Source of the DNA: an uncultured Poribacteria bacterium
GTDB taxonomy: Bacteria > Poribacteria > WGA-4E > WGA-3G
NCBI GenBank assembly: GCA_958295855.1
Contig: OY282383.1
Span: 183,178 to 247,177, forward strand
Direction: 5' to 3'
DNA length: 64,000 bases
Shown here: positions 3,564 to 47,392 of the stretch, in pieces
Position numbering within the stretch: the stretch's first letter is position 1
Layout of the letters: each line of letters starts with the position of its first letter
Notes under the pieces: generated by a model
Told to the model about the DNA's origin: nothing
The model's input: only the letters and a program-made list of their open reading frames with translations
Databases searched by the model: none
Position numbers and translations under genes: made by a program

Positions 3564-3604
3564 TCCGCGTAATCCGCGTAATCCGCGTAATCCGCGATTC
3601 AGAC
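3564..3604. repeat. CCGCGTAATCCGCG (x3) ATTCAGAC repeat, same family as the Rpn-flanking repeats
   Basis: Direct sequence match to positions 30-76 and 1396-1530. Confidence 0.8.
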
Positions 3605-3610
3605 AATAGA

Positions 3611-3642
3611 GGTCACGGCACACGGAGTGTGCCTACTACCTT
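3611..3642. repeat. Hairpin module (GGTCACGGCACACGGAGTGTGCCTACTAC) overlapping the 3' end of the RM gene
   Basis: Same family as 14592-14702 and 47276-47392. In the gene's frame it encodes VVGTLRVP plus the stop codon. Confidence 0.8.
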
Positions 3643-14591: not shown

Positions 14592-14702
14592 CTCTGTCTG
14601 CTAACGGCACGCGGAGCGTGCCTGCTACTTTGTCTGCTAACGGCACGGCGGAGCGTGCCTGCTACTTTGTCTGCTAACGGCACGGCGGAGCGTGCCTGCT
14701 AC
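14592..14702. repeat. Three tandem copies of the hairpin module TGTCTGCTAACGGCACG(G)CGGAGCGTGCCTGCTACTT
   Basis: Stem GGCACGC/GCGTGCC with loop GGA. Lies between convergent genes and is terminator-like. Confidence 0.8.
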
Positions 14703-14722
14703 TTTGTCCGCCCCGAAGCCGA

Positions 14723-15175
14723 TTAAGCGTTGACGCGGATCGGAATTTCCGTAGGCTTGGCTTCTTCCGCTTTCGGAATGTCAAGCGTCAGAACACCATC
14801 TTTGAACTCGGCTTTGATATCATCCGCCTTGACTGTCGGCGGGAGCGTAAATGCCCGTTGGAACCTTCCATAGGGGCGTTCGACTCGGCGGTAGTTTTTG
14901 CTGTCGTCCACCTGTTCCTGACGCTTTTCGCCTTTGAGCGTCAAGCGGTTCTCTTTTACGGAGACCTGGATATCGTCCTGAGTGACACCCGGGAGTTCGG
15001 CGCGAACTTCAAAACTATCGTCCGTTTCAGCAATATCAACGGAGGGGGACCAGTTGTGTTCGCCTGCTACGGTTCGCATGCCCTGATAGACAAATGGGTG
15101 CTGGAAAATTCGCCAGGGTCTGTTGTGAAGTTTGAACAGATTTGCTGCCGGTCGACGTAAGGTTACATAAGTCAT
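14723..15175 (-). CDS. Hsp20/alpha-crystallin family small heat-shock protein
   Basis: 150 aa with an alpha-crystallin domain (SVDIAETDDSFEVRAELPGV...). Confidence 0.85.
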   Translation of the reverse strand: MTYVTLRRPAANLFKLHNRPWRIFQHPFVYQGMRTVAGEHNWSPSVDIAETDDSFEVRAELPGVTQDDIQVSVKENRLTLKGEKRQEQVDDSKNYRRVERPYGRFQRAFTLPPTVKADDIKAEFKDGVLTLDIPKAEEAKPTEIPIRVNA

Positions 15176-15336: not shown

Positions 15337-15789
15337 TTAAGATTTCACCGTAATCGGGATGTGCGTCTGTTTTGCCTCTTCTGCTTTGGGAATTGTCACC
15401 CTTAAGACACCATCGCCGAATTTTGCTGTGATAGCCGTGGATTCAACGTTCCGTGGCAAGGTGAATGTCCTTTGGAAGCTACCATACCGCCGTTCGACGC
15501 GGTGGTAGTTTTTGTCCTCAGTTTCTGCTTCCTGTCTTTTTTCGCCCTTGATTGTCAGCACGTTGTCGATTACTGAAACATGGACATCGCTTTCCGTAAC
15601 ACCGGGGAGTTCTGCGCGAACTTCAAAACTATTGTCCGTTTCAGAAATATCAACGGAAGGCCTCCAAGGGGTGTCACCGGCATCAGTTCTGCCTTCTCGA
15701 GACTCAAACAGGTCTTCAAAAGTACGTCCCATTTCGGAGTGAAGGTTGAACAGGTTACCGATGGGGCTGCGTGTGGTTAAGAATGCCAT
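15337..15789 (-). CDS. Hsp20/alpha-crystallin family small heat-shock protein (tandem paralog)
   Basis: 150 aa, highly similar to the adjacent gene at 14723..15175. Confidence 0.85.
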   Translation of the reverse strand: MAFLTTRSPIGNLFNLHSEMGRTFEDLFESREGRTDAGDTPWRPSVDISETDNSFEVRAELPGVTESDVHVSVIDNVLTIKGEKRQEAETEDKNYHRVERRYGSFQRTFTLPRNVESTAITAKFGDGVLRVTIPKAEEAKQTHIPITVKS

Positions 15790-26030: not shown

Positions 26031-27116
26031 CTAAGGATAATTGTAGACATTTTCAGACTCTGTGGTGAAGGTATTTACCCCGCTTTGCGGGGCAGATACC
26101 ACCTCATCAGGACTCTGGTTGGCATCCGGTTGTTCGCCCCTCTCACGGTTCGCATTAAATTCGCGCAAAATACAGTTGACAATCTCCTCAGTATACGCTT
26201 GCGCGTCTACATTGTGCTGATTTGCCTCCCAGGCCATCCTCGCTGCTGCCTCGAAGTACTCTGCATGCTTATAGGCATCTAAGATGTCTGTGCCTCGTGA
26301 AAATGTTCCGTGCCCGACCCAATAGAGAATATAGCGCTCTGGGCTGCCGCCATTCTGAAAAAGCCGTAGACTCTCATAAGATAATTCGGGAATACCCGGT
26401 GCCCGCTCTTGCACAAACCCGATGCCGCTAGACGCATCGTATATAATCGGGGTTTCGGGTTCATACCCTCTGAGAAAATTATAAAACAGGTCGGGATGTC
26501 CATGCTCTGTTCGAGAGATTAGGTTCAAGAACTTCGGCTGCAGATGGACAAGTGCATTAAACCCGTGTGGCTCTAGCTGTTCAAAAATGAGCAGGTAGTG
26601 GAACATCTCACTCGTTGGAACGGGTGGTGCAACGCCGTTTGCATGTCGATTCAAAACAGACTGCTCCGGTGTGCCGAAACGCATCCGATAATGCATACCG
26701 TCCGGTTCAACCTCAATGAGCGTTAAATTGAGCGCAGGATGCTCACTCCCAATCATGTCCAAACGCGAACCCGATTTTGTCAGCAGGACGTGTCTCCCGG
26801 CCAGCTCTTTAACGACAATCTGTGGTGGTAATTGGTAACGTGGCGACTCATCATAAGGGATGAGGCATGGGTTCTCAACTGTTTCCGTTAAAACGGCGCC
26901 CATATTGCCAGCAGTTGCCCACAAATATTCGTGAGCGTGTGCATGTGCACCGACCCAGCCCATCTGCCCTATCAAGGTACCACATTCACTGTCAGGTGAA
27001 ATAGGGCGCAGGTCGGGATGATAGCCCCTCTCACGCCAGCGTTCGTAACGATAACTCTGGGGCGGGGGTGCTGTTAACGCATTTATCAAATATGGATTGG
27101 CTAATGTTAAATGCAC
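26031..27116 (-). CDS. Class II aldolase/adducin-like protein (tentative)
   Basis: 361 aa. HAHAHE and GHGTF motifs reminiscent of class II aldolases. The C-terminal tail is encoded by a palindromic element. Confidence 0.35.
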   Translation of the reverse strand: MHLTLANPYLINALTAPPPQSYRYERWRERGYHPDLRPISPDSECGTLIGQMGWVGAHAHAHEYLWATAGNMGAVLTETVENPCLIPYDESPRYQLPPQIVVKELAGRHVLLTKSGSRLDMIGSEHPALNLTLIEVEPDGMHYRMRFGTPEQSVLNRHANGVAPPVPTSEMFHYLLIFEQLEPHGFNALVHLQPKFLNLISRTEHGHPDLFYNFLRGYEPETPIIYDASSGIGFVQERAPGIPELSYESLRLFQNGGSPERYILYWVGHGTFSRGTDILDAYKHAEYFEAAARMAWEANQHNVDAQAYTEEIVNCILREFNANRERGEQPDANQSPDEVVSAPQSGVNTFTTESENVYNYP

Positions 27117-27176
27117 TCGCTGTTCTATTCCTCGCTTAAGATACTCTATATCTTAACTATACCATGTTTACCAGAA

Positions 27177-27790
27177 GATAGCAAGCTTTTCGTCATTCCT
27201 TGCGGAGTAATCAGGTTGCAAGACGCATCGCGCAATGCACTGTAGATCTCGTCGGAGGTTTCTGATGCCTTAATTGTTTGTAGGGGCAGTGCCTTGTGCC
27301 TGCCCTTCCCCTCCGAATCGCAACACTTTTACAAAAAAGTTGAATATTCCGCTGACATGTGGTAAAATTCGTATTTTCGTCATTCCTTGCGGAGAATTCA
27401 GGTCGCAAGACGCATCTGGCAATGCACTGTAGATCTCGTCGGAGGTTTCTGATGCCTTAATTGTTTGTAGGGGCAGTGCCTTGTGCCTGCCCTTCCCCTC
27501 CGAATCGCAACACTCTTACAAAAAAGTCGAATATTCCGCTGACATGTGGTAAAATTCGCCTTTTCGTCATTCCTTGCGGAGTAATCAGGTTGCAAGACGC
27601 ATCTGGCGCTGCACTGTAGCTCTCGTCGGAGGTTTCTGATGCCTTAATTGTTTGTAGGGGCAGTGCCTTGTGCCTGCCCTTCCCCTCCGAATCGCAACAC
27701 TTTTACAAAAAAGTTGAATATTCCGCTGACATGTGGTAAAATTTGCGGCGTAATGGCATTAACCCCCTGCAAAGCAGGGGCAAATACCCT
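27177..27790 (+). repeat. Three tandem copies of a composite unit of about 184 bp, then a palindromic element
   Basis: Tandem periodicity starting at about 27177, 27361 and 27545. Module order: TTTTCGTCATTCCTTGCGGAGTAATCAG; CTGTAGATCTCGTCGGAGGTTTC; GGGCAGTGCCTTGTGCCTGCCC; promoter-like TTGAATATTCCGCTGACATGTGGTAAAAT. Confidence 0.9.
27714..27742 (+). promoter_or_regulatory. Promoter-like element TTGAAT, 17-bp spacer, TGgTAAAAT (extended -10); promoter-proximal copy of three
   Basis: Identical elements at about 27346-27374 and 27530-27558. Oriented toward fumC. Confidence 0.5.
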
Positions 27791-27831: not shown

Positions 27832-29217
27832 ATGCGAACTGAAACAGATAGCATGGGCAGCCTCCAGGTCCCAGCCGACCGGTACTGGGGCGCACAGACA
27901 CAACGCGCCCTCCAAAATTTTAGAATCGGCGATGAACGTCTGCCACGCGCGGCGATATGGGCACTCGGCACTGTGAAACAGGCAGTCGCGCACGTGAATG
28001 CGGACCTCGGTTTGCTTGAACCTCGGCTTGCGGATGCAATCAGCACTGCAGCACAGGAGGTTATTGATGGCACATTGGATGACCATTTTCCGCTCCGAAT
28101 TTGGCAGACAGGCAGCGGAACACAGACAAATATGAACGTGAATGAAGTCATTGCAAATCGGGCAATTGAGCAACTGGGTGGCGAAATGGGCAGCAAGCAT
28201 CCCATCCACCCCAACGACCACGTCAATAAGTCTCAATCAACAAACGACGTTTTTCCGACAGCTATCCATTTGGCGCTCTTAAAGCAGATTCGGGAGTTTA
28301 TGTTGCCGCGCCTTAGCGCACTACGAGATGCGTTTGCAGAGAAGGCATCCGCCTTCGAGGAAATTGTTAAGATCGGGCGAACGCATCTGATGGATGCAAC
28401 ACCGCTCACGCTTGGACAGGAGTTCAGCGCCTATACACAACAACTTACTCATGCAGAGACGCGCATAACCGATTCCCTCCCACACCTCTCTGAGCTTCCA
28501 ATTGGCGGCACGGCTGTCGGGACAGGATTAAATACGCATCCAGACTATACGGCGCGCGTGGTGGCGAGGCTGGCGGAGATGACCGGATATCCACTCCAGC
28601 GTGCCTCAAACGCGTTTGAAGCACTTGCATGCAGGGATGCCGTGGTGAGTGCGAGTGGCGCGTTGAAGACGCTGGCGGTTGGCCTGTTTAAGATAGCAAA
28701 CGACATCCGGTGGCTCGCCTCGGGGCCGCGGTGTGGACTGGGTGAGTTGCAGTTGCCTGAGATGGAACCAGGAAGCTCAATTATGCCGGGGAAGGTGAAT
28801 CCAACACAGTGTGAGGCTGTGACAATGGTGTGTGCACAGGTGCTCGGGAACGACACGACGCTGACGTTTGCAGGTGCCAACGGGGCGTTGCAACTGAATG
28901 TGTTTATGCCTGTGATTGCGTATAACGCTTTGCAATCCATACAACTTCTCGGTGACGCGTGCGAATCATTCCGCAAAAACTGTGTGGAAGGCATCGTGCC
29001 GAACAAGGAAGCGATTGGGCAGCACCTCTCGGAATCGCTGATGCTCGTTACGGCGTTAACACCGCATATTGGCTACGATAGGGCAGCAAAGGTAGCACAA
29101 TACGCGCATGAGCAGGGCTGCACGCTCCGCGAAGCTGCTATTGCCCTGGAGGTATTAACGGCAGAGGCGTTTGATGAATTTGTCGTGCCGGGGGACATGA
29201 CGAAGCCGAATCTATAA
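27832..29217 (+). CDS. fumC: Class II fumarate hydratase
   Basis: ORF 27808..29217. Start set at [27 protein letters not shown] by alignment to the canonical FumC N-terminus. [16 protein letters not shown] signature. Confidence 0.9.
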
Positions 29218-29396
29218 TTGGTTGCAGGCTGTCGACATACTGCCCATCAGCCCCCCGCACCCCGACACAGGCAACAATGAAAAATTTTTTGTCGTGCCGG
29301 GGGACATGACGAAGCCGAATCTATAATTGGTTGCAGGCTGTCGACATACTGCCCATCAGCCCCCCGCACCCCGACACAGGCAACAATGAAAAATTT
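29181..29396 (+). repeat. Tandem duplication of about 108 bp spanning the fumC stop codon
   Basis: The segment 29181-29289 is repeated almost exactly at 29290-29396. The first copy includes the last 12 codons of fumC. Confidence 0.85.
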
Positions 29397-29399
29397 ACT

Positions 29400-29752
29400 G
29401 ATTTTTCATTTAGGGTAATGCCCCGCAAAGCGGGGAATCACCCTGTCACCTGTGTTGCGACGTGCATTCAGATGTAACCTTAGCCCCAGCGGGGCGACAT
29501 GTGTATAGCCGCGCATGCCGACCCTCCTCCTTAGCCCCAGCGGGGCGACAGGTGCTAAGGGTGCATAAGAAACCTCCGACGACATCTACTGTAGCGGCAG
29601 TGCCTTGTGCCTGCCCATCTACATCGTCAGAACACTCCTGCCAATGGTATTTGCCCCTGCTTTGCAGGGGTTTCATACCAAGTTGTGAATGGCCAATGAA
29701 CAACTTTTTTATTTCTTACTTATGCTGATTACTCCGCAAGGAAAGACAAAAA
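29400..29752. repeat. Mosaic of intergenic repeat modules (palindromic element, GCCCCAGCGGGGC hairpin x2, GGCAGTGCCTTGTGCCTGCC, CTCCGCAAGGAAAGACAAAAA)
   Basis: Module families recur across the window. Confidence 0.8.
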
Positions 29753-32700
29753 TTAGTCATCATCGTCACTTGCGGTATCAAGCGGTTGTCCCTGATAGGC
29801 AACTTCTATGTTCTGGAAGTCGGAGAAGCCGCTTCCCGCTGGGATAAGCCTACCGAGGATGACGTTTTCTTTTAGCCCGAAGAGCCTGTCGGTTTGACCG
29901 CTCACTGCCGCGTCTGTGAGCACTTTGGTCGTCTGCTGGAAGGAGGCCGCTGAGATAAAACTATCTGTGCTCAAGGAGGCTTTGCTGATGCTCTGGAGTA
30001 TGGGTTCTCCTGTGGCGGGTGTGCCGCCTGCGGTGTCGATGGCACTGTTTTGACGCTGGAACTTGTCGCGGGCGACTTCTTCGTTCGGGTAGAAGGCTGT
30101 ATCGCCGGACTCGGTGACGCGTATCTTTGTCAGCATCTGCCGGACGATGGCTTCGATATGCTTGTCGTTGATGACTCTTGCACCGTAGACTTTCTGGACT
30201 TCATCGACAAGGTATGCCCACACGGCTTCTTCGCCTTCGACGGGTACGCCGTTTATGAGGGTACGCCCGATTCTTAAAATATCGTGCGGGTTGAGGAATC
30301 CATCTGTGAGCGGTTGGCCTGCATCTACCCAGTCGCCTTCGGTGACTCGCCGTTTTTCATCAGGGATGGCATAGACTCTGCTGGTATGCCCTTCATCTAT
30401 GATGCGGTATGTGGGTACGCCTGCCTTGGTGCCTACGGCTTGTACGTGTCCCTCAATTTCGGCGATTTCTGCGGCATTTTCTCGCTTGGGACGCCGGGCT
30501 TCAAACAGTTCTGTGACGCGGGGTATGCCTGCTACGATGTCTCGGTTCGCGGTTTTCTCATGCAGTTCTGCGAGGGTGTCTTCTGCATCAATGCTATCCC
30601 CTTCTTCGACGGAGAAGGAGTAACCGAGAGGTATGAGATGCGGCACGTAAGCACCCTGACTGTTCACGATTTCGATATGCATGCGCATGTCGAGCTCGGC
30701 TGTTTCAAAGCCGGCGTATTGTGCAAAAGTTGTCTTGTATGCTTCTTCAGTCAATACCTCGCCGACGGTATGCCCACAATTGGGATGGAAGACATCCGTG
30801 ACGGTGTAGGTTTTCCGCTGGTTCTCCTTCTGTAGCTTGCGGTATTCCTTTTCGCCTAGAATGTGCCCAGGGTCGAACTGAGGGACAGAGGAATCTGTCC
30901 TTTCGTCCCGGGTGACCTGATTGACGCGTTCGACATCAAACGCTTTGTACTGCCGCTGGTATGATCGGTATTCCTTTTCAGTTAACTCGGTTCCGACTTC
31001 CAACTGCAGGTCGGGGTGATGTACACTAACGACGACATATAGACTCGTGAATTTTCCCGAAATTTCGGGATCTTCTTTACGCAACGACTTATACTGGGCT
31101 TCGCTTAAGCGCTGTCGCGATTCGGAGATCGCTCCTACCTCCTCGTAGTAGCGTTGCACTTCAAACCCCTTGTACTGTCGGCGGTGTGCGCTTGACGCTT
31201 TTTGTGTCAACAATTCACCAGGCTGTAGCGGGCACTCGGGGTGATTGACAGCAGTCACGTGATAGAGTCGTTCCGCCTCAAAGGGTCCCATTGTATTAAC
31301 AGCGGAGGAGGCTGTGATACCTGGGAAAGTGGCTCTGAACTGTTTCTCCTCACCATCGCTGAGCAAGTCACCTGGTTTGAGGGTGCAGTCCGGATGATGC
31401 ACATGGATGACGCGGTGCTTCAACTTTTGAACATTGAACCCAGGAAACCGCTTGTGTTCCTTACGTGCCGCGTCTGTTGTTAGCACGTCGCCGACCTTGA
31501 GGGGGAACTCGGGGTGATAGACTGCGGTGACAACATGCTTCGGGGCATCCAATTCTTTAACCTGAAACGCCCGATACTTTAGACGGGCCTCCTCGTAGGC
31601 GCGTTCGGTTAATTCTCTTCCAATCTGATACTCGGCTGGATCCAGCCCCGAGTTTGCGTCTCCTGTTATCTCAGTATGCATAACGTAGACAGGCTTTGAC
31701 TCCAAGTCAAAGGGGGTAAGCCACGAGGCGATGTCTGAAGCCGACACTTCCTCTCCAACCTCATAAGGGAAGTCTGCCCGAGTGCGCTCGGTTATGCGGT
31801 AGACACGTTCGAAGTGAGAATCCCGGGCGGAGTGGGTATGTTCCCCGCTTTGCGGGGAGAAGGGTTTTGCCCTGCTTTGCAGGGAATTACCCTCTTCACC
31901 CTTTTCAGACTCGCCTCCCTGGGTCGCGCCGACTGAGGCAAGTTCTGTCTCTGTAAAGAGCTGCCCTGTCTCTGAATCTCGGGAAAGCCATTCACCATCA
32001 AACCCTGTGTGCATCTTGGCCTTCAACTCATCTGCTTTTTCGAGTGTGAGCAGCTCCCTCGGTGTAACAGCAATGTCGGGGTGAAGCACTTGCGTCACAC
32101 GGTATTTCTGCGTTACAAAGCGGCCGAAGCCGTATTGCTTCCGGGCCTTGTCATATTGTGCCTGTGACAGCCGGGCGCCTTCCTGAAGGTGGCAGGCATG
32201 CTCCGATACAGCTGCCTCACTTAACTTTTCAACATGTTGAAAAAACGTCTCTTCAATCTCAGGCTCAAGTGAATCAATCTCACTGACGAGGGTTTCACTT
32301 GGTTGACGTACATTGCCGTATTTTTCTGTAAATTGTCGATACTCATCAGAGCTGCTGAACTTTTGGTGGCCTTCTCCGGGTTGTTCCGCATGGCAACCAA
32401 TGCAGAGTGCCGCCAGGTCCCTGGGTTCGTTATGCTTCGTTCCCCGCCGATGGTGGACATGGAGAAACTGTTTATCATCCTTAAGGGCTACACCACACTG
32501 CTCGCACTGCCAACCGGCCCTATCACGATATTTCTCTGAGAGAAACTTCCAAGCGTCTGATGAATAATCAAAATGCTGTCCGAGAACGCTATAACCGTTA
32601 TTTACTTTAGCACGCTCCGATACAGCAGTTACCTCATACTGCCAGGTCTCGGTCTCAAAGCCTTTATAACGTTGTGCGTTTTCAGTGTACTGCTTCTCAC

Positions 32701-35700
32701 TCAACAACTCACCTGGGAGCAATGGGCACTCAGGGTGGTTAACCTGGGTGACCTTGTAAGCAGGTGCATCAAGCTTTGCGCTAGAGGGATGAACCCCCTG
32801 CTTTGCAGCGGCAGACTGACCGATTGTGTTCATCATATCTACTTTGTTGTCGGTTTCCCATGCAGAAGATGGACTGTCGGAGCCGATGGCTATCCAGAGA
32901 TTTCCTTCTTGGCGCACTGTGCTGCCGGGGCGGAAATCGCGGAACCGCACGGTTCCCTTAACTTTCGCAAGAACTTTGCGCTGGCGCGCTTCTGAAATGG
33001 CCTCAACAGCCCCACCGGTGTGGAACGTCCGCATCGTTAGCTGCGTGCCGGGTTCACCAATGGATTGTGCAGCGATGATACCGATGGCTTCGCCGACATT
33101 GACAAGATTGTTGGTCGTCAAATCAATGCCGTAGCACTTTGAACAGACACCTTCGTCGGCTTGACAGGTGAGTACGGAACGCACTTTTACGACTTTGATG
33201 CGCGCGGCCTCAATCTGTGTGGCTTCTTCCTCGGATATCAATTGCTCGCTGGCTTTAAGCACTTGGCCTGTATCTGGGTGGATGATGTCTTCGGCGGCGG
33301 TTCGCCCTCTGATTTTAAATGCAAGGCTGCCGCCTTCAGTTGTAAACTTCTGAATGCTGTTCAGTGTCTTGCAATCTTCAGTGGTAACGCGGACATCTTG
33401 GGCAACATCTACTAACTTCCGGGTTAGATACCCGGATGCGGCGGTTTTCATTGCGGTATCTACTAAGCCTTTGCGCGAGCCGTAGGTGGAGTTGAAATAG
33501 TCTAACACATCTAAGCCTTCGCGATAGGAGGCGGTTATCGGTGTAGAGAGAATGTTGTTGCTCTGATCGGATTTCAAGCCGACAATTGCACTAATTTGCA
33601 TAAATGGGTTCTTCCGCGCGCGCGCTCCACTATCCGCCATAATATGCACTGGACTGAAACCTTTGACGGTTTCAGCGCCTATCTCTACGCCATCAGCATC
33701 TACGTTTGGATGAATCTTACGCGAGTCGCCGCGTTCAACGAGTGATGTCTCTAATTCGGGTAAGGCGGAGAACATCCTTTTCTCAACCTGTTCAATCGCT
33801 TCGAGCCAGATGCGAATTCGCTCATTCTCTAACTCGCCTGTGTCTGTAGCAGAGGTTGTCGCAAGGAGGTTATCCACTTCGGACTGGGCTTTGCTCACTA
33901 AAGCATCCCGGTTGTCGGGCCTGAGGTAATCTGTTATGCAGGGCGATATGCCGCTCAGGGTTGCATAGTGGAAGGCAAGTTTTTGGATTTCCTCAAGCAT
34001 GTTGACTGTAACACGCGTTCCTAATTCGTTGAAACAGTCGTAGACTATCTTGGATAACTCGCGTCCGCTGGCTTCGGCGTTGAAAAAAGGCACCTGCTGC
34101 CGGGAATGCTCGTCTATCCACGCATCCTCGGACGAACTTCCTTTGATTTTCTTGAGTTTATCTGGCAGTACTTCGTTGAAAATAACTCTGCCTACTGTCG
34201 TGAGTATGGGGCTGGCTGTGGCACGCGGCCTGCTACTTTCGTGCTTGCTACTTTCCCCAAAAAAGAGTTGGAGGCTATCGTGTAGTTTGAGTTGGCCGGC
34301 TGCGTGCGCGGCGATAACTTCTTCTGTATTTGAATAGCGACGGTGGTACCAAGGTTTTTGGCGGAGCTCATCCAGTCGCGATTCGGAGATGGCTCCTACC
34401 GATTGCGCGATAAACTCATGCAACAACTTTGCATCCTCAGCATGTCCCGGCAGTTCCTTCGTCAGGAAACTCGGCCCTAGCACCATGTCAAGCTCCGGTA
34501 CTGCAATTGGACCGCCGTGGGATGGCTTGAGGATATTATGACTGCTGAGCATTAGCAGCTTTGCCTCTGCCTGTGCCTCTACTGTGAGTGGCACATGCAC
34601 TGCCATCTGGTCGCCGTCAAAATCGGCGTTGAATGCCTTACACACAAGGGGAGGTATCCGTATCGATTTGCCTTCTACTAACACTGGCAGAAATGCCTGA
34701 ATGCCAAGCCGATGCAACGTGGGTGGGCGATTCAGTAACACGGGATGGTCGGCTATGACTTCCTCTAAGACTTCCCAGACAGGTGAATTGGACTCCACAT
34801 GCTCGGCGATGTGCTTCGCACGTTTTATCGTCTGCGTATAGTTATACGCTTGCAGCCTCTCGATAATAAATGGCTTGAACAATTCTACGGCCATTCGCTT
34901 GGGCAAACCGCATTGGTGGAGTCCCAGTTCGGGGCCGACGACGATGACGCTTCGCCCAGAGTAATCGACGCGTTTTCCGAGCAGATTCTGACGGAAGCGC
35001 CCGACTTTGCCTTTGAGGATATCGGAGAGTGACTTGAGCGGTCGGTTGCCAGGGCCGGCAACACGCCTGCCGTGCCGCCCGTTGTCAAAGAAGGCATCAA
35101 CGGCTTCTTGTAACATCCGTTTTTCGTTGCGCAAAATGACTTCGGGGGAACGGAGCTGTATTAACTTACGCAGCCGGTTGTTACGATTGATGACGCGGCG
35201 ATACAGATCGTTCAAGTCGCTTGTGGCAAAACGCCCGCCTTCGAGGGAAACAAGGGGCCGTAAGTCCGGGGGAATGACGGGTATCACATCCATAATCATC
35301 CACTCGGGGCGCTGTTCAGATGCGGCAAAGTCAGACAACTGTTTGAGCTGTTTGGATATCTTGAGCTTTTTCTGATGGCTTGTTGTTTCCGAAAGCAGTT
35401 CGGTGAGTTTCTCTTTCTCTGCCTGCAGGTCGATGCTGTTCAGAATCTCAGAAATGACTTCGGCGCCAGTCCCTGCGCGAAATTGACCGGGGTACTGGTG
35501 TTTCGCTTGCTCGTATTCTAATTCTGTTAGGACCTGACGCGGCTGCAGCGGACAGTCCGGGTCGCTGACGGATACAACAACAAAGGCTTCAAAATAGATG
35601 ATGCGTTCTACTTGGCGTGAGGAGAGATTACAAAAGGTGCCGATTCGTGACGGTATGCCTTTGAAGAACCAGATGTGGGAAACTGGGGCGGCGAGCTGGA

Positions 35701-36058
35701 TATAACCGAGGCGCTGCCTGCGTACGCGCTGCTGCGTTACCTCAACTCCACACCGGTCGCATATCACTCCCTTGTGCTTTATCCGTTTATATTTCCCACA
35801 ACTACACTCAAAGTCTTTTTGCGGGCCGAAGATGGCTTCGCAGAATAGCCCTTCCGGTTCTGGCCGGAGGGAGCGATAATTAATGGTTTCTGCCTTCCTC
35901 ACTTCGCCGCAGTTACACCTTCCCATCTCCGGACAGATAAAGGGTTCTCTTGTGGATTGGGATGTGCTACGACGCTTACAACAGGTTTGCTTGGCTAATG
36001 CTTTTATCTCCTGGGGTGAGGCTATTTTTATCGAAATACTGTCAAACGCTGTTTTCAT
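29753..36058 (-). CDS. rpoC: DNA-directed RNA polymerase subunit beta' with a very large trigger-loop insertion (SI3-like, about 800 aa) containing SBHM-type repeats, an HNH motif and in-frame repeat elements
   Basis: 2101 aa. Canonical beta' blocks: NADFDGDQM and MRTFHTGGA, then an insertion, then GIPRVTELFEARRP. RBS AGGAA within the upstream repeat. Confidence 0.95.
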   Translation of the reverse strand: MKTAFDSISIKIASPQEIKALAKQTCCKRRSTSQSTREPFICPEMGRCNCGEVRKAETINYRSLRPEPEGLFCEAIFGPQKDFECSCGKYKRIKHKGVICDRCGVEVTQQRVRRQRLGYIQLAAPVSHIWFFKGIPSRIGTFCNLSSRQVERIIYFEAFVVVSVSDPDCPLQPRQVLTELEYEQAKHQYPGQFRAGTGAEVISEILNSIDLQAEKEKLTELLSETTSHQKKLKISKQLKQLSDFAASEQRPEWMIMDVIPVIPPDLRPLVSLEGGRFATSDLNDLYRRVINRNNRLRKLIQLRSPEVILRNEKRMLQEAVDAFFDNGRHGRRVAGPGNRPLKSLSDILKGKVGRFRQNLLGKRVDYSGRSVIVVGPELGLHQCGLPKRMAVELFKPFIIERLQAYNYTQTIKRAKHIAEHVESNSPVWEVLEEVIADHPVLLNRPPTLHRLGIQAFLPVLVEGKSIRIPPLVCKAFNADFDGDQMAVHVPLTVEAQAEAKLLMLSSHNILKPSHGGPIAVPELDMVLGPSFLTKELPGHAEDAKLLHEFIAQSVGAISESRLDELRQKPWYHRRYSNTEEVIAAHAAGQLKLHDSLQLFFGESSKHESSRPRATASPILTTVGRVIFNEVLPDKLKKIKGSSSEDAWIDEHSRQQVPFFNAEASGRELSKIVYDCFNELGTRVTVNMLEEIQKLAFHYATLSGISPCITDYLRPDNRDALVSKAQSEVDNLLATTSATDTGELENERIRIWLEAIEQVEKRMFSALPELETSLVERGDSRKIHPNVDADGVEIGAETVKGFSPVHIMADSGARARKNPFMQISAIVGLKSDQSNNILSTPITASYREGLDVLDYFNSTYGSRKGLVDTAMKTAASGYLTRKLVDVAQDVRVTTEDCKTLNSIQKFTTEGGSLAFKIRGRTAAEDIIHPDTGQVLKASEQLISEEEATQIEAARIKVVKVRSVLTCQADEGVCSKCYGIDLTTNNLVNVGEAIGIIAAQSIGEPGTQLTMRTFHTGGAVEAISEARQRKVLAKVKGTVRFRDFRPGSTVRQEGNLWIAIGSDSPSSAWETDNKVDMMNTIGQSAAAKQGVHPSSAKLDAPAYKVTQVNHPECPLLPGELLSEKQYTENAQRYKGFETETWQYEVTAVSERAKVNNGYSVLGQHFDYSSDAWKFLSEKYRDRAGWQCEQCGVALKDDKQFLHVHHRRGTKHNEPRDLAALCIGCHAEQPGEGHQKFSSSDEYRQFTEKYGNVRQPSETLVSEIDSLEPEIEETFFQHVEKLSEAAVSEHACHLQEGARLSQAQYDKARKQYGFGRFVTQKYRVTQVLHPDIAVTPRELLTLEKADELKAKMHTGFDGEWLSRDSETGQLFTETELASVGATQGGESEKGEEGNSLQSRAKPFSPQSGEHTHSARDSHFERVYRITERTRADFPYEVGEEVSASDIASWLTPFDLESKPVYVMHTEITGDANSGLDPAEYQIGRELTERAYEEARLKYRAFQVKELDAPKHVVTAVYHPEFPLKVGDVLTTDAARKEHKRFPGFNVQKLKHRVIHVHHPDCTLKPGDLLSDGEEKQFRATFPGITASSAVNTMGPFEAERLYHVTAVNHPECPLQPGELLTQKASSAHRRQYKGFEVQRYYEEVGAISESRQRLSEAQYKSLRKEDPEISGKFTSLYVVVSVHHPDLQLEVGTELTEKEYRSYQRQYKAFDVERVNQVTRDERTDSSVPQFDPGHILGEKEYRKLQKENQRKTYTVTDVFHPNCGHTVGEVLTEEAYKTTFAQYAGFETAELDMRMHIEIVNSQGAYVPHLIPLGYSFSVEEGDSIDAEDTLAELHEKTANRDIVAGIPRVTELFEARRPKRENAAEIAEIEGHVQAVGTKAGVPTYRIIDEGHTSRVYAIPDEKRRVTEGDWVDAGQPLTDGFLNPHDILRIGRTLINGVPVEGEEAVWAYLVDEVQKVYGARVINDKHIEAIVRQMLTKIRVTESGDTAFYPNEEVARDKFQRQNSAIDTAGGTPATGEPILQSISKASLSTDSFISAASFQQTTKVLTDAAVSGQTDRLFGLKENVILGRLIPAGSGFSDFQNIEVAYQGQPLDTASDDDD
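32380..32515 (-). other. HNH nuclease motif embedded in the rpoC trigger-loop insertion
   Basis: Motif: CEQCG, then LHVHHRRG, then N, then LCIGCH, spaced as in HNH domains. No intein splice-block signatures nearby. Confidence 0.6.
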
Positions 36059-36462
36059 ATTTTCGCTATTCCTTGCGGTGTAATCAGGTTGTAAGGTTCA
36101 TCGAGGGTTACACTGTAGATCTCGCTGGAGGTTTTCGCTATTCCTTGCGGAGTAATCAGGTTTTCGCTATTCCTTGCGGTGTAATCAGGTTGTAAGGTTC
36201 ATCGAGGGTTACACTGTAGATCTCGCTGGAGGTTTTCGCTAAAAGGGTTCGAAGGTGCCAAGAATTTTGACACCTTGTTCCTGTCTGTAATTTGCGGAGA
36301 ATTCAGCATGGGCAGGCACAAGGCACTGCCCCTACAGATACAAGCCTTGCATCAAAAACCTCCGACGAGATCTCTAATGCGATGACAACTACATAATGCC
36401 AATGGTATTTGCCCCTGCTTTGCAGGGGTTTTATACCAATTCGAGTTCTCCGCAAGGAATGA
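36059..36462. repeat. rpoB-rpoC intergenic mosaic: two copies of TTTTCGCTATTCCTTGCGGTGTAATCAGGTTGTAAGGTTCATCGAGGGTTACACTGTAGATCTCGCTGGAGG, plus GGGCAGGCACAAGGCACTGCCCCTACAG and a palindromic element
   Basis: Direct reading of the sequence. Provides the rpoC SD and the rpoB stop codon. Confidence 0.85.
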
Positions 36463-39400
36463 CTAAAGGTCTGAGTCGCGATTGAGTGTCACGTTCAGAC
36501 CAAGGCTCTGGAGTTCTCGCACGAGCACGTTAAACGATTCGGGCGTGCCGGGCGGGTTTGGGTTCAGCCCCTTAACTATGGATTCATAGATTTCCGATCT
36601 GCCTGCCACGTCGTCCGATTTGAGGGTGAGCATCTCCTGGAGCGTATGCGCAGCGCCATAGGCTTCAAGTGCCCACACTTCCATTTCACCGAGTCGCTGG
36701 CCGCCATGTTGCGCCTTACCGCCCAGAGGTTGCTGGGTGACAAGCGAGTAAGGGCCTGTGGAGCGCGCATGCATCTTGTCTGCTACAAGATGGTTCAGTT
36801 TAAGGAAATAGACGTAGCCGACTGTGACTTCTTGGGCAAAGGGTTCACCTGTCCTGCCATCATAAAGTACGCTTTTCCCTGTCTTTTTACTGCGTTCGGG
36901 GAGGTTCGTTTTTCCGAGCAGTTCAAAGATTTCAGTCTCTGTTGCTCCGTCAAATACGGGGGATTCTGCGCGTATGCCTAATGCGTGGCACGCCCATCCG
37001 AGGTGAATTTCTAAGATTTGCGCGACATTCATTCGTGATGGGACGCCTAAGGGGTTCAGCACGATTTCAACGGGTGTGCCATCTGGCATATAGGGCATAT
37101 CTTCAGCTGGCAGGATTTTTGCCACAACGCCTTTATTGCCATAACGGCCTGCCATTTTATCGCCAACGGAAATGGGACGTTTACTCGCGATATAAACTTT
37201 GACGCGTTTGATAACACCGGGTTTGAGTTCATCTCCCATCTCCAATTGCTTGAGGGCGCGTTCTTTCTCCTCTGTGTAGGCGGCTATCCTGCCTTGCGCC
37301 ATCTCCTCAACGCGGCGAATGTGTTCCATTGCGGCAGCATCCGTTACGCAAACGGATGATAACGCTATGCCAGGTGTGTCTAATAGCTCAGCTGTCACTG
37401 TGTCACCCGCAGCAAACGACGTTGGGGCAGCACTTTGTTCGGAATTCCCGCCCTGCCCCTTTGCCTCTTCACTGCTTTGCTTCCCGCCCGGTTTCCCATC
37501 ATGGGCAACCAGGAGGATAGCCTCCGCGTTGGTATGTTCCCCACTTTGCTTCCCGCCCTGCCCCTTTGCCTCTTCACCCTTTTCCCCATCGTGCCTAACC
37601 TGTGCCACTACAGGCAATGCAAGTTCACAACCAAGGAGCATGTTGCGTATTTCTTCGTCCTTCCGGTGGCGTATGGATGCGATGTGCGTCCTCCACGTCT
37701 CCTCGCTCTGCTTACGTTTGGATTCATAGCGCAATTCTTCAATTCTTGATGCGCCTGTTTCCGAACGTGTCCAGCCGCCGCGGCGTTGCAATCCATCTGG
37801 CTTTCGGGAAAACACTTTGACATCAATTACTATGCCTTCAACGCCGGGGCGGATGTAGGTGGAGGCATCGCGGACATCTCGTGCTTTTTCGCCGAAGATG
37901 GCGTGCAGCAGTTTTTCTTCGGGGCCATACTCACTTTCGCCTTTGGGCGTAATTTTTCCCACGAGGATACTGCCGGCACTGACAACACTGCCAACGCGGA
38001 TGATGCCTTCCTCATCAAGCTGCAAAAGGCGTTGCTCGCTCATGTTCGGAATGTCGCGCGTTATCTCCTCTGGGCCCACCTTCGTTTCGCGTGCCTCTAC
38101 TTCGACTTCTTCAATATGAATAGAGGTAAAGGTGTCCTTGCGGATGAGGGTTTCACTAATGAGGATAGAGTCCTCATAGTTGTGCCCGCCCCAGGGCATA
38201 TAGGCGCACAAGATATTTCTGCCGAGGGCGAGTTCACCTCCGTCGGTGGATGTGCCGTCGGCAATAACATCGCCTGCTTGCACTTTATCGCCTACAGAAA
38301 CGATTGGATGCTGGTGGATACAGGTGCCACTGTTACTGCGCTTGAAAGTCTGGAGTTTGTACTGGTCGTATCCCATTTCGCTAAATCCATGCTCGCCGGT
38401 GTCGGTATGCAGCACTTCGCCGGTGTGTATGAGGATTTCGTCAGCGGAGATACTTGCGACGGTGCCGCTGCGGATGGCGGTTCGGAGGGCTCCGGAGTCC
38501 AGTGCGGCGCGGGTTTCCATGCCTGTAGCTACAAGAGGGGCTTCCGGACGGATGAGGGGGACGGCTTGGCGTTGGTGGTTGGCTCCCATCAATGCGCGGT
38601 TCGCGTCTTCGTGCTCGAGGAACGGAACAAGGGAGGCAGAAACGCCAACTATCTGTTGCGGCGCGATGCCAACATAGTCAATTTCAGTGGATTTCGTTTC
38701 TTTGAATTCTATGACGTCGCCCTCTTTGGCATCGTTCCAGCGTCGCATGGCACGGACAGAATAGCCATGGCGGTTTTTCTTTCCTGCTTTATGGAAAGCA
38801 TCTGCGGATGCAATGGTACAGCCCAGCTCTGCATCTGCAGTCAAATACTCAATCCGGTCAGTGAGCTTACCCTCAACAATGACTTGATAGGGCGTTTCCA
38901 AGAACCCGTAGCGATTGACGCGTGCGAATGTAGCGAGCGATACAATCAGCCCGATTGAGGGCCCTTCTGGGGTTTCAAGCGGACATACACGCCCGAAATG
39001 CGTTTCGTGAACGTCGCGGACAGCTGCGGTTGCCCTGTCGCGATGTAGTCCGCCGGGCCCGATTGCGGAGATGCGGCGTTTGTGCGTCAACTCATCCAGG
39101 GGATTGATTTGTTGCATAAACTGCGAGAGTTGGTTAGAGCCAAAAAACTCACGGAGTGCCATCATGAGTGGTTTGGGGTTCACCAATGCGCCGGGTGTTG
39201 CTTTGGCGCGGTCCTTGAGGATATCGACAGCACTGAGGCGTTCGCGTGTCGTTCTACGGATTTGGAATAATCCCATTCTGAATTGGTTTTCTAGCAGTTC
39301 CCCGATAACTCTGACGCGCCGATTTTCGAGATTGTCCTGGTCGTCCTTGGGTACAAGTTTGTTCTGCACCTGTATGAGGTATGCCAGTGTTGCGGTGATA

Positions 39401-41013
39401 TCCTCTCCGGTGCGGCGGAGTGTGCGGACGCTTTCGTCTGGCATTGTCCATTTCCCCTGCGTGCGTGCTGCGGTATATCCATCAAGCGTGCGGGGTGTTC
39501 CGTCGGGTACCTCTCCATAAATAGGTAGTTCTCCCAATTTCTGATTGAGTTTGTATCTGCCGACAACGCCGAGGTCGTAGCGTTGTGGGTCGAAGAGTAG
39601 CCAATCGAGTTGTCGTTGTGCATTCTCTAGGGTAGCGGAATCCCCCGGTCTGAGGGTTCGGAAGATCTCCAGTCGTGCGGCGTCGCCTAGGGTATGCTGG
39701 GAGGCGTATTCAGATTCCCGGTCTTTTTCAAGGGTGTTGCGTAAAAATCGGATACGTTGGCAATCCTCTGGATGGAGGACGGTGAGTGCTTGGATGCCGG
39801 CTTCGGTGAGGCGGTCCAACTCAGTCTGGGTGAGTAGGGTATTGGCTGTGATGAGGCATTCACCAGTGTCGGGTGAAATGACTGGTTCAGCACAGACGCG
39901 CTCGACCTGGTTCTGAATATCCGTGGGTTGCAGGGGTGTAGCCGTAAACATTGCGTCTCCGTCATGGTAACCGTATCTGGCTCTCGCTTCTAGGTATTCG
40001 GCTTGGGTTAAGATTTGCCCGGGAGTCAACTCACATCCGGAGTTTTGAATAGCCAGGATGCGGTGGAGAGGTTCGGTCTGAAAGCCCTTGGATTTTCTGC
40101 GGGAGCTTGCGCGTTCTTTCTCGGTTATAATTTGTCCCTGCTCCAAGGGGCAGTCTGCGTCTGTGACTTCGGTAACGCGATGGCATTTTTCGGTGTCAAT
40201 CCCGTTATATTGCTTGCGTGCGTGCCTCAGTTCAGTGCTCGTTAGCAGTTGCCCGGGCGTGAGGGGACATTTGGCAAGGGAGACTTCTGTGACGCGCCAG
40301 CCTTGAAGTACGAGGCGTTCGGTTTTGGCATAAAGTTTCAAGATGTCGGCATCAGTTTCCCAGCCGAGGGCGCGGAGGAGTACGGTTGCTGGGAGTTTCT
40401 TGCGCTTGTCCATGCGGACATAGATTTGCTCCTTGGTATCCACCTCAAACTCTACCCATGCGCCGCGGTAAGGGATAATTTGTGCTGTGGGGCTTCGTTC
40501 GGTTGTCAAAGCTTTGTCTTTGGCACTCTCGAGGAAGATAACGCCCGGTGAGCGATGCAACTGACTGACTATGACTCTTTCGCTGCCATTAATAATAAAA
40601 CTTCCGCTCTCCGTCATCAATGGGACTTCTCCGAGATAGACGTCGGATTCTCGGATATCGACGACGTGGGGTTCGGTTGCATCCGGGTCTGCCTCGCGTA
40701 TGACGAGCATGACGCGTGCAGTAAGGGATACCTGATAACTCATCCCGCGTGCGACGCATTCTTGTAAGGTATATTTCGGCGTACCCAGGGAGTAGTGGAC
40801 AAATTCAAGGGTGTTGACTTCTGAGAAGTCCCGGATAGGGAACACCTCACGAAAAACGGCTTCAAGCCCATAATTTTCGCGTTTTTGGCCCTTGGTGGGT
40901 TCGACATGTCGCTGTAAGAAGTCTGCATAAGCTCGCTGTTGGGTTTCTATAAGATTCGGAAGCGGGGTTTGAACCTGTGTTTTGGCAAAAGAGATCCTGG
41001 GTTGTTTGTTCAC
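36463..41013 (-). CDS. rpoB: DNA-directed RNA polymerase subunit beta with lineage-specific insertions (BBM2/SBHM-like repeats in the N-terminal third; low-complexity tandem repeat in the SI2 region)
   Basis: ORF 36463..41166. Start moved to the GTG at 41011-41013 (AAGGAGA 7 nt upstream) because the ORF's upstream extension runs through a repeat element. Canonical beta blocks present, for example GDKMAGRYGNKGVVAKI. Confidence 0.9.
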   Translation of the reverse strand: MNKQPRISFAKTQVQTPLPNLIETQQRAYADFLQRHVEPTKGQKRENYGLEAVFREVFPIRDFSEVNTLEFVHYSLGTPKYTLQECVARGMSYQVSLTARVMLVIREADPDATEPHVVDIRESDVYLGEVPLMTESGSFIINGSERVIVSQLHRSPGVIFLESAKDKALTTERSPTAQIIPYRGAWVEFEVDTKEQIYVRMDKRKKLPATVLLRALGWETDADILKLYAKTERLVLQGWRVTEVSLAKCPLTPGQLLTSTELRHARKQYNGIDTEKCHRVTEVTDADCPLEQGQIITEKERASSRRKSKGFQTEPLHRILAIQNSGCELTPGQILTQAEYLEARARYGYHDGDAMFTATPLQPTDIQNQVERVCAEPVISPDTGECLITANTLLTQTELDRLTEAGIQALTVLHPEDCQRIRFLRNTLEKDRESEYASQHTLGDAARLEIFRTLRPGDSATLENAQRQLDWLLFDPQRYDLGVVGRYKLNQKLGELPIYGEVPDGTPRTLDGYTAARTQGKWTMPDESVRTLRRTGEDITATLAYLIQVQNKLVPKDDQDNLENRRVRVIGELLENQFRMGLFQIRRTTRERLSAVDILKDRAKATPGALVNPKPLMMALREFFGSNQLSQFMQQINPLDELTHKRRISAIGPGGLHRDRATAAVRDVHETHFGRVCPLETPEGPSIGLIVSLATFARVNRYGFLETPYQVIVEGKLTDRIEYLTADAELGCTIASADAFHKAGKKNRHGYSVRAMRRWNDAKEGDVIEFKETKSTEIDYVGIAPQQIVGVSASLVPFLEHEDANRALMGANHQRQAVPLIRPEAPLVATGMETRAALDSGALRTAIRSGTVASISADEILIHTGEVLHTDTGEHGFSEMGYDQYKLQTFKRSNSGTCIHQHPIVSVGDKVQAGDVIADGTSTDGGELALGRNILCAYMPWGGHNYEDSILISETLIRKDTFTSIHIEEVEVEARETKVGPEEITRDIPNMSEQRLLQLDEEGIIRVGSVVSAGSILVGKITPKGESEYGPEEKLLHAIFGEKARDVRDASTYIRPGVEGIVIDVKVFSRKPDGLQRRGGWTRSETGASRIEELRYESKRKQSEETWRTHIASIRHRKDEEIRNMLLGCELALPVVAQVRHDGEKGEEAKGQGGKQSGEHTNAEAILLVAHDGKPGGKQSSEEAKGQGGNSEQSAAPTSFAAGDTVTAELLDTPGIALSSVCVTDAAAMEHIRRVEEMAQGRIAAYTEEKERALKQLEMGDELKPGVIKRVKVYIASKRPISVGDKMAGRYGNKGVVAKILPAEDMPYMPDGTPVEIVLNPLGVPSRMNVAQILEIHLGWACHALGIRAESPVFDGATETEIFELLGKTNLPERSKKTGKSVLYDGRTGEPFAQEVTVGYVYFLKLNHLVADKMHARSTGPYSLVTQQPLGGKAQHGGQRLGEMEVWALEAYGAAHTLQEMLTLKSDDVAGRSEIYESIVKGLNPNPPGTPESFNVLVRELQSLGLNVTLNRDSDL

Positions 41014-41039
41014 TTGATGCGGTCTCCTTTTGGTACCGG

Positions 41040-41739
41040 ACTCTGGTGGTGGGCAGGCACAAGGCACTGCCCGTACGGCGCAATGAAATCCCGAGAATAA
41101 AAAAGTTGTTTGCTTTTCGCGCACAACTTGGCTTGCAAGCTTCGCCAAAAAGTGGTGGGCAGGCACAAGGCACTGCCCCTACGGACGCGCCGCCTTTTAA
41201 CCTATTGGCAATAGCATAACAGAATATTATACACTATAATTAGGGGAAAGTCAAGAAAAAATGCATTTTTGTTATTCCTTGCGGAGTAATCAGCATAAGT
41301 AAGAAATAAAAAAGTTGTTCATAAAAATTCACAACTTGGTATGAAACCCCTGCAAAGCAGGGGCAAATACCATTGGCAAGACACATCCAGCAATGCACTG
41401 TAGCTCTCGTTGGAGGTTTCTTATGCAACCTTTCGGGCCAATGGCTGCCCGCCCACCCGTTTCCGTATTGTGGCTAAAAAAGGGGGTGCTTGTTTTTGAC
41501 GTTAATCAAGCTAGGGCATTTAGTTTTCAGTAGTTTTGAGTAAGGGGCGTGGTTGGGTGAGGATTAAGAATTTTCGTCTATGCCTAGTATTTTGATTGGA
41601 TTATGTGGTGTTAATGGCATTGGAGCTCTCGTCGGAGGTTTTGGTCTATGTCTAGTATAATGTGGTATAAAGGTTGACACACCACGTTAACTTGGTATAC
41701 TGTATTAAGGTACGGAAACCCCGTGCTACGGGAGACAAA
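41040..41739. repeat. Repeat-dense intergenic region (GGGCAGGCACAAGGCACTGCCC x2, palindromic element, CCCGCCCACCCGTTTCCG, GGGCATTTAGTTTTCAG, and others)
   Basis: Module families shared with other intergenic regions. Confidence 0.8.
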
Positions 41740-43574: not shown

Positions 43575-43826
43575 TCAGCATGGGTATGAAACCCCTGCTT
43601 TGCAGGGGCAAATACCATTGGCAGGATAGTTCTGACGGGCAGGCACAAGGCACTGCCCCTACAGTAGATCTCGTCGGAGGTTTCTGATGCAAGTTTTTTA
43701 ATGCTTAATTAGCAGGGAACACACTACAACTCATGTCGGAGGTTTCTGACGCAATGTTCGTAGGGGTGGTGCCTTGTGCCTACCCACATACTGGAGTATA
43801 TCGCGATTCGGACATCGCTCCTACGT
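43555..43826. repeat. Intergenic mosaic (TTTTCGTCATTCCTTGCGGAGTAATCAG, palindromic element, GGGCAGGCACAAGGCACTGCCCCTACAG x2, GATTCGGACATCGCTCCTACG)
   Basis: Module families shared across the window. Confidence 0.85.
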
Positions 43827-47102: not shown

Positions 47103-47275
47103 TCTTCGGACTGGCGACTCCTGCCTTTAGGTAGAAGAGGAAAGTCCGCCTCCTGTTAAATTCCCTTTTCAGCATGTGGTATTTAACTCTGCAAAGCAGG
47201 AGCAGATACCCTGTGCCGTTTTTGGGGAGTATACTACAAAAACAACTATCCTTCAAGCCCTAAATTGTACAAACG

Positions 47276-47392
47276 GGTCACGGCACGCGGAGGGCTCCTA
47301 CGACTTTGGTCACGGCACGCGGAGCGTGCCTACTACTTTGTGCCTACTACTTTTGGTCACGGCACGCGGAGCGTGCCTACTACTGTTTCCAT
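47276..47392. repeat. Tandem hairpin modules (GGTCACGGCACGCGGAGCGTGCCTACTACT x3, one degenerate) overlapping the 3' end of the DUF1156 gene
   Basis: Same family as 3611-3642 and 14592-14702. Encodes VVGTLRVP plus the stop codon. Confidence 0.85.

Follow-up and report, generated by a model that had tools for sequence, protein, structure and literature searches.

A strain-variable tandem array of mosaic intergenic repeats carries copies of the native fumC promoter in an uncultured Poribacteria bacterium

The closest described counterparts of the locus reported here are clusters of repetitive extragenic palindromic (REP) sequences, in which REPs tagged with GTAG are mixed with other motifs and reiterated in tandem together with flanking DNA (Di Nocera et al. 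2013, PMC3733652; Nunvar et al. 2010, PMC2817692). A GTAG REP is defined by an unpaired GTAG at one end of a 5-13 bp stem with a 2-20 nt loop, and GTAG repeats have been reported in the PVC (Planctomycetes-Verrucomicrobia-Chlamydiae) superphylum (PMC3733652). A second precedent comes from engineering, where tandem core promoters produce a stepwise rise in transcription in Escherichia coli, up to five copies (Li et al. 2012, PMC3293061). Here we analyze a 64,000-nt stretch of contig OY282383.1 from an uncultured Poribacteria bacterium (hereafter the window), in which three tandem units, each composed of repeat modules and a promoter, lie upstream of fumC, the gene for class II fumarate hydratase. 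In this array the native fumC promoter has indeed been amplified in tandem, to a copy number that varies among strains. As for its history and effect, we consider it probable that a native promoter bracketed by mosaic repeats was reiterated by recombination or slippage, with a modest increase in fumC expression to be expected.

Tandem Repeats Finder (TRF), applied to the window, reports a repeat at 27187-27743 with a period of 187, 3.0 copies, 95% matches and a score of 1030, and a repeat search returns three 184-nt copies with 187-nt spacing and 96-97% identity (27186-27369, 27373-27556 and 27560-27743). The array proper spans 27187-27747 and consists of three head-to-tail units, which are followed by a remnant outside them:

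27187..27373, + strand: unit 1 of the 187-nt array (modules A, B and C plus the native promoter segment), from TRF and the repeat search
27374..27560, + strand: unit 2, with 9 differences from unit 1, including a T to C change in the −35 element (TCGAAT)
27561..27747, + strand: unit 3, nearest fumC, with 8 differences from unit 1 and 10 from unit 2
27744..27788, + strand: truncated A module (first 14 nt gone) fused to a D palindrome (CCCCTGCAAAGCAGGGG, 27764-27780), from local alignment and hairpin fold

The initial annotation had described three near-identical tandem units, and these are real. The 184 bp that it gave as the unit length is the gap-free matching core of a repeat whose true period is 187; its array start of 27177 moves to 27187, and 27744-27788 lies outside the units. 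Within each unit, the first ~129 nt are made up of the dispersed intergenic modules A, B and C and the last ~58 nt form the promoter segment:

27187..27214, also 27374 and 27561, + strand: module A (TTTTCGTCATTCCTTGCGGAGTAATCAG), from the blastn-short module map; repeat-search family D4/D17
27218..27268, also +187 and +374, + strand: module B (..CACTGTAGATCTCGTCGGAGGTTTCTGATGC), from the blastn-short map; repeat-search family D3
27280..27305, also 27467 and 27654, + strand: module C, a GTAG-tagged REP-like palindrome (GTAG + GGGCAGTGC CTTGT GCCTGCCC); repeat-search families D11/D18
27314..27371, also +187 and +374, + strand: native fumC promoter segment (A/T-rich upstream tract, −35, spacer, extended −10, TCG)
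27340..27368, + strand: P1, TTGAAT-17-TGgTAAAAT; −10 ends 464 nt before ATG 27832
27527..27555, + strand: P2, TCGAAT-17-TGgTAAAAT, with a mutated −35; −10 ends 277 nt before ATG 27832
27714..27742, + strand: P3, TTGAAT-17-TGgTAAAAT; −10 ends 90 nt before ATG 27832; ancestral position relative to fumC

Assemblers are well known to go wrong at tandem repeats, and a single unit might have been expanded into three in this way. Such an expansion is very unlikely here, given that the units differ pairwise by 8-10 substitutions over 187 positions and that the two inter-unit junctions are distinct (TCGTA versus TCGCC, that is, …TAAAATTCGTA followed by TTTT… versus …TAAAATTCGCC followed by TTTT…). In addition, two independent megabase-scale contigs, one of them circular, hold the same composite in two copies, and the record of a FumC-identical protein, P0121, places it on a contig of 5.5 Mb, a length implying assembly from long reads. 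Two other identities for the array were considered and rejected: a CRISPR-like (clustered regularly interspaced short palindromic repeats) array, as there are no spacers, and coding sequence, as the only open reading frames (ORFs) within it are TTG-started frames of 50-65 aa that recur with each unit.

The promoter segment has the layout CGAATCGCAACACTTTTACAAAAAAG-TTGAAT-17 nt-TAAAAT-TCG and is confined, within the window, to the three unit copies. Its 29-nt string TTGAATATTCCGCTGACATGTGGTAAAAT is found at 27340, 27527 (with one mismatch, TCGAAT) and 27714 and nowhere else in the 64 kb, against a chance expectation of 0.00. In a consensus scan, the TTGAAT-17-TAAAAT of P1 and P3, whose cores are identical and intact, scored 9/12 matches to the σ70 consensus (TTGACA and TATAAT, spaced by 17 ± 1 nt), and P2 was not called. 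The second position of the P2 −35 element is changed from T to C, a change that should weaken a σ70 promoter of this kind. The 17-nt spacer and the TG one base upstream of TAAAAT are present in all three units. Consensus-like σ70 promoters also occur elsewhere in this organism, as shown by TTGACT-17-TATAAT upstream of a 1567-aa ORF read as rpoB. Thus, the earlier prediction of an extended −10 promoter in each unit, all directed toward fumC and the last about 90 nt from the start codon, agrees with the TGgTAAAAT found on the + strand of each copy and with the conservation of these putative elements in orthologous loci; its statement that every unit carries TTGAAT holds for units 1 and 3, unit 2 having TCGAAT instead.

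To place the segment in an evolutionary context, the nearest fumC loci were compared. All belong to Candidatus Poribacteria, mostly from sponge-type metagenomes, and those with a single promoter copy before fumC are as follows:

L097 (FumC 97%, Logan): one promoter, with the string GTTGAATATTCCGCTGACATGTGGTAAAATTCGTC identical, then ordinary unique DNA and no module
L082 and L083 (FumC 94%, TARA scaffolds): a 223-nt intergenic region with only two back-to-back promoters
L084/85 (FumC 90%): single promoter
L086 (FumC 86%): single promoter
L001 (FumC 84%, metagenome-assembled genome): single promoter
L088 (FumC 79%): single promoter

In the repeat-free loci L097 and L082/L083, the promoter core matches that of the window units exactly or almost exactly. 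In L001, L084/85, L086 and L088, the spacer and flanks have diverged and all that survives is TTGAAN or TTGCAT, a 17-18-nt spacer and TGnTAAAAT, TAAATT or TAAACT. Indeed, across seven other Poribacteria loci nothing but the −35 and TGnTAAAAT elements is conserved as a block at the orthologous position; the invariant blocks of the alignment (A1) are GTTGAA and TGTGGTAAAATT, and the distant loci keep TTGAAT, TTGCAT or TTGAAA, a spacing of 17-18 nt and TGnTAAATT or TAAACT, with the TGn in all orthologues. Hexamers and spacing have thus been retained at the orthologous site while the spacer sequence and flanks diverged, which is the phylogenetic footprint expected of a σ70 promoter. The orthologous single copies in relatives also show that the 58-nt segment is DNA native to the fumC locus rather than a component of the repeat family. 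A scan of Joint Genome Institute (JGI) metagenomes gave 0 matches to the promoter string.

These comparisons bear on the idea that a mobile repeat delivered the promoter, facing outward, as in insertion sequence elements or the Correia elements of Neisseria. Although the promoter is contiguous with A-B-C in every unit, as this idea would have it, the string is missing from the ~15 other module clusters of the window and occurs once, at the orthologous position, in relatives that lack the modules altogether, leaving such a delivery barely credible. The initial annotation was therefore right that the units are composites, in that their modules are dispersed in the window in both orientations; the promoter that it counted among the components is native DNA captured by the repeats.

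The number of promoter copies differs among close relatives at this one orthologous site, as in a variable-number tandem repeat (VNTR): one in L097, L082, L083, L001, L084-L086 and L088, two in L081 and L096, and three in the window. The suggestion that copy number may vary among strains is thereby borne out. L081 and L096 come from one long-read metagenome assembly, in which they are a 3.98-Mb contig and a 5.51-Mb circular contig; their FumC proteins match the window protein at 98-98.5% identity, and the flanking DNA of L081 is 97-98% identical. Each has two promoter-bearing units, followed by a promoter-less composite that starts with an A variant. (The two-unit array of L081 was missed by TRF and was established by reading and alignment.) The second units of both share a derived disruption of palindrome C (GTGCC-GGT-TTCCC), which indicates that the two-unit state is older than the split between L081 and L096. 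A 39-nt D block is present in both units of L081, in unit 2 only of L096, and in none of the window units. It occupies L081 3270-3311 and 3496-3537 and L096 1966-2007 (compare window 27214-27218), where the sequence with the block reads …TCAG + CATTGGCAT(G/A)AAACCCCTGCAAAGCAGGGGCAAATACCATTG + GCAAGAC and that without it …TCAG + GT(C/T) + GCAAGAC. From these sequences, the presence and absence of the block suggests that D is mobile, or undergoes conversion, separately from the other modules. Elsewhere in L081, an A-D-B-C' composite at 1205-1376 lies in frame within the variable N-terminal region of a PGA_cap-family gene (432 aa; its window counterpart has 441 aa), where it replaces 196 nt of unrelated sequence and leaves the ORF open.

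The modules themselves recur throughout the window. Modules A-C are found on both strands and in variable order; A, for example, lies at 29725-, 36068+, 41274+, 43551+, 57564- and 58717+ (the sign giving the strand), and D, a long palindrome (GGTATTTGCCCCTGC-TTT-GCAGGGGCAAATACC), is more widespread than A, B or C. Module clusters occupy 29563-29752, 36060-36463, 41051-41641, 43551-43781, 50353-50499, 57401-57776 and 58717-59050, all between ORFs. Module C has ~15 copies, three of them in the array, on both strands and all outside ORFs of at least 130 aa. Its sequence is that of a GTAG-tagged REP (GTAG + GGGCAG T GC CTTGT GC CTGCCC), with a stem of 6+2 bp and a short loop. REPs of this type are mobilised by a REP-associated tyrosine transposase (RAYT), a Y1 HUH enzyme whose gene they flank. 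No RAYT was found in the window, either by tblastn with E. coli YafM as query (best E 0.28) or by Pfam analysis of 10 small ORFs. The same modules form other tandem arrays, of 111 nt × 2.5 at 58748-59027 and 101 nt × 2 at 36060-36241, and with 163-nt spacing at 57480-57754, and no repeated promoter-like site was found in these three. Features of a miniature inverted-repeat transposable element (MITE) are ambiguous: the composite at 36060-36468 has A-type modules inverted at both ends, with no target-site duplication by eye; the fumC units carry module A at one end only. Regularly alternating REP orientation is absent as well, the three array copies of C having the same orientation, 187 nt apart, and the order and orientation of modules elsewhere in the window varying without regular alternation.

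Several side observations concern these and similar repeats. At 43633-43690, 57505-57535 and 57668-57698, module C lies inside module B, beside the GTAG of B itself, and replaces ~8 nt; judged from sequence, this placement hints at GTAG-directed insertion. The entire spacer at 36059-36462, between the 1567-aa ORF (read as rpoB by position and size) and rpoC, is built of these modules, with A-type modules in inverted orientation at its two ends and a 101-nt tandem repeat within. This spacer lies inside an essential operon, and its modules must be cotranscribed with the RNA polymerase genes. A second palindromic family carries a CTAC tag, the reverse complement of GTAG (GGCACGCGGAGCGTGCC + T(G/A)CTAC; 14595-14708, 47273-47384 and 3608-3640), and includes a 37-nt × 3.1 head-to-tail array. 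The 9-mer AATCCGCGT and its variants form dispersed arrays in the window (28-63, 1397-1517 and 3564-3596) and in L081 (5440-5490), where they lie downstream of fumC, a place at which the window has none.

Outside the window, blastn-short (E < 0.01) detected modules in only one of 88 fetched loci (0.98 Mb), namely L081; the other 87, including the syntenic 9-kb loci of the 94% relatives, had none. L096 was fetched after this search, and its modules were identified by eye, so that among the sampled loci the modules are present only in the window, L081 and L096. In the JGI scan, the module A core had 7 matches, all attributable to chance, lying inside unrelated coding sequence with no other module near. 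As far as samples show, the module family thus appears confined to this Poribacteria species. The modules match no Rfam family: in searches of the window at the gathering threshold, and of the locus and the window at E ≤ 1, only a tRNA passed; matches to sX14, MIR394 and SOX2OT at E ~0.7-0.8 were far below their family thresholds and were treated as noise. Nothing of direct relevance came up in the literature on intergenic repeats of Poribacteria, on 'Poribacteria-1' or on the promoter effects of VNTRs. Modules A-D are apparently an undescribed and very recently expanded repeat family in Poribacteria.

The array lies between two divergent transcription units:

27832..29217, + strand: fumC, class II fumarate hydratase, 461 aa, from Pfam on homologues and similarity
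26031..27116, − strand: Aldolase_II-family gene, divergently transcribed
27156..27184, − strand: promoter of the divergent aldolase-like operon, TTGCTA-17-TGgTATAGT, kept in all syntenic relatives

FumC homologues at 98-68% identity all carry Lyase_1 (PF00206) and FumaraseC_C (PF10415), and the window protein is 60-64% identical over its full length to those of Acinetobacter and Neisseria fumC loci. The orthologues all agree with a start at ATG 27832 (MRTETDSMG…) rather than at ATG 27808, which lies in frame farther upstream. Orthologous loci retain the gene order DUF6785-PGA_cap-(210 aa)-aldolase_II <> fumC < rpoC. Downstream, the window has an exact (100%) 109-bp × 2 tandem duplication at 29179-29396, comprising the last 13 fumC codons, the stop and 70 nt beyond; it is absent from L081, L082 and L097 and is a very recent event or possibly an artefact. 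The fumC-rpoC spacers are entirely different, at 233 (L081), 72 (L082) and ~150 nt (L097) versus 535 nt in the window. The rpoC ORF (2101 aa, 29753-36058) and its neighbour, presumably rpoB (1567 aa, 36463-41166), are unusually long for bacteria, and the β′ proteins of relatives measure 1908-2234 aa. At a distance, two tandem paralogous HSP20 genes of 150 aa each (14723-15175 and 15337-15789) share a 161-nt stretch that is 74% identical.

This arrangement suggests how the array arose. Module A of unit 1 starts 2 nt from the −35 element of the divergent aldolase promoter. At the other end, 27744-27788 aligns with an A-D composite over 42/45 positions with one 7-nt gap, matching the 3′ half of A and D; it directly follows unit 3 as a downstream direct repeat and falls within the 5′ untranslated region of P3. 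Because the array ends in this truncated composite, the promoter block is bracketed by direct A copies, and recombination or slippage between the A copies that flank the promoter best explains the array. Mosaic repeats (A, B, the REP-like C, and D) would have settled on both sides of the ~58-nt σ70 promoter segment, in the gap between the back-to-back aldolase and fumC promoters and immediately downstream of the fumC −10. The [A-B-C-promoter] block may then have been reiterated, twice in some strains and three times in the window, by unequal homologous recombination or by slippage during replication between the flanking direct A(-B) copies.

The predicted outcome is three codirectional promoters. 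No convincing intrinsic terminator lies between them, as the B hairpin (−6.5 kcal/mol, z = −0.41) has an interrupted U-tract and the C hairpin (−14.9 kcal/mol, z = −2.7) has no U-tract and is followed by UUCCCCUCC; up to three nested fumC transcripts are thus plausible. Read-through into fumC from P1 and P2 is likely on this basis, and would yield long-leader fumC mRNAs with REP-like hairpins, the leaders being roughly 460 and 270 nt. The net effect would be a modest, copy-number-dependent rise in fumC transcription, which is our best guess because engineered tandem promoters raise transcription stepwise in E. coli. As a separate observation, module B contains, at 27256-27275 (+187, +374), GGAGG, a 6-nt gap and ATG-CCT-TAA, a Shine-Dalgarno-like site with a two-codon mini-ORF, and this site might bind ribosomes in the long leaders; in other B copies, the mini-ORF is different or missing.

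Each unit could instead be read as a small RNA gene or a cis-regulatory RNA, with the promoter driving an A-B(-C) transcript that ends at the B or C hairpin. The ~85-130 nt that end in hairpins after each promoter would suit such a transcript, and the B hairpin was flagged in a terminator scan, with a T-run after the same hairpin in another copy (43672). However, the B hairpin is weak, the whole unit folds like its shuffles (z = −0.42), and no Rfam match at E ≤ 1 comes near its family threshold. The occurrence of the modules in both orientations and in variable order fits repeats acting at the DNA level, and we regard an RNA gene as quite improbable.

Returning to amplification of the native promoter by its flanking repeats, a version with the same origin but no function has to be weighed: the extra promoters may be a by-product of repeats that tend to form tandems, contributing little or nothing to fumC and decaying. 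Several points favor it and weigh against an expression gain. Arrays of the same modules without a promoter (58748-59027 and 36060-36241) indicate that reiteration needs no selective benefit. The exact duplication at the fumC 3′ end and the wholly different fumC-rpoC spacers speak for high neutral intergenic turnover. The mutated −35 of P2 and the core substitutions in the second units of L081 and L096, which also have a broken C palindrome, fit relaxed constraint on the extra copies. No measurable excess of conservation separates the promoter cores from the rest of the units (3/203 substitutions, or 1.5%, versus 30/1104, or 2.7%; Fisher p = 0.46), so that selection on the extra copies cannot be demonstrated. 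Beyond these, the σ70 specificity of the host, an uncultivated organism, is assumed from general bacterial knowledge, and the recombination route is inferred from its end-points only. Downstream promoters can also be occluded by those upstream, and a long structured leader can reduce the yield of mRNA, such that the net effect could be nil. On the other side, the window has two intact promoters out of three, every −10/TG element across strains is intact (7/7), no terminator separates the extra promoters from fumC, promoters that are intact and close to consensus normally fire, and in E. coli the effects of tandem promoters add up (PMC3293061). Neutrality is, in our judgment, possible but rather unlikely, although the predicted gain in expression would not be separable from it with these data.

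A more far-reaching interpretation holds that mosaic repeats act as a general recombinational 'rheostat', bracketing native promoters and generating selectable, copy-number-variable arrays that tune central-metabolism genes such as fumC. Unit number would then be heterogeneous within the population and under selection, making the array a promoter-dosage analogue of contingency loci in an uncultivated phylum. We find this improbable.

What the locus offers is a natural example, resolved in detail, of dispersed REP-like or mosaic repeats that have captured and multiplied a complete native promoter, which stands once, twice or three times at the same orthologous site in genomes that are closely related. 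It indicates that intergenic repeats can rewire the promoter architecture of a housekeeping gene of the tricarboxylic acid cycle in an uncultivated sponge symbiont. Extra promoters that are active would make copy number a simple heritable dial for fumC expression; with inactive ones, the locus would still be a useful marker for strain typing and a reason for caution when promoters are predicted, or short reads assembled, in these genomes.

With REP clusters and bacterial interspersed mosaic elements (BIMEs), the fumC array shares a GTAG palindrome (module C), a mosaic build, many intergenic sites, both orientations and strong strain variation. It differs in that the reiterated flanking DNA is a complete native promoter, that the array copies of C are all head-to-tail, which is rare in described families, and that modules A, B and D are not REPs. 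In addition, no RAYT is linked to the modules within the window, and their sequences match no described family and are found only in this species. The modular build is like that of E. coli-type BIMEs, but without their regularly alternating REP orientation. Pneumococcal BOX (boxA-boxB(n)-boxC), Neisseria Correia and enterobacterial repetitive intergenic consensus (ERIC) elements are likewise modular intergenic repeats with variable module number that are cotranscribed with flanking genes. The repeats here are not known to resemble them in sequence and have no demonstrated structure of terminal inverted repeats and target-site duplications, and whereas Correia elements bring their own promoter parts, these repeats carry none.

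The mycobacterial interspersed repetitive unit (MIRU)-VNTRs are long-period intergenic tandem repeats with strain-variable copy number, sometimes located in promoter regions. The fumC array has the same long period and strain-variable unit number, but it is a composite of dispersed modules and unique promoter DNA and belongs to no dedicated VNTR family. Natural tandem promoters, such as rrn P1-P2, place several codirectional σ70 promoters before one gene, as is the case here. The engineered MCPtac tandem promoters (PMC3293061) have this same arrangement; they are closely packed, whereas the predicted promoters at fumC are spaced by 187 nt, with hairpin-forming repeats between them and one copy mutated. 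Rather than a new mechanism, then, the locus is a known kind of repeat-driven rearrangement, one already described for REP clusters.

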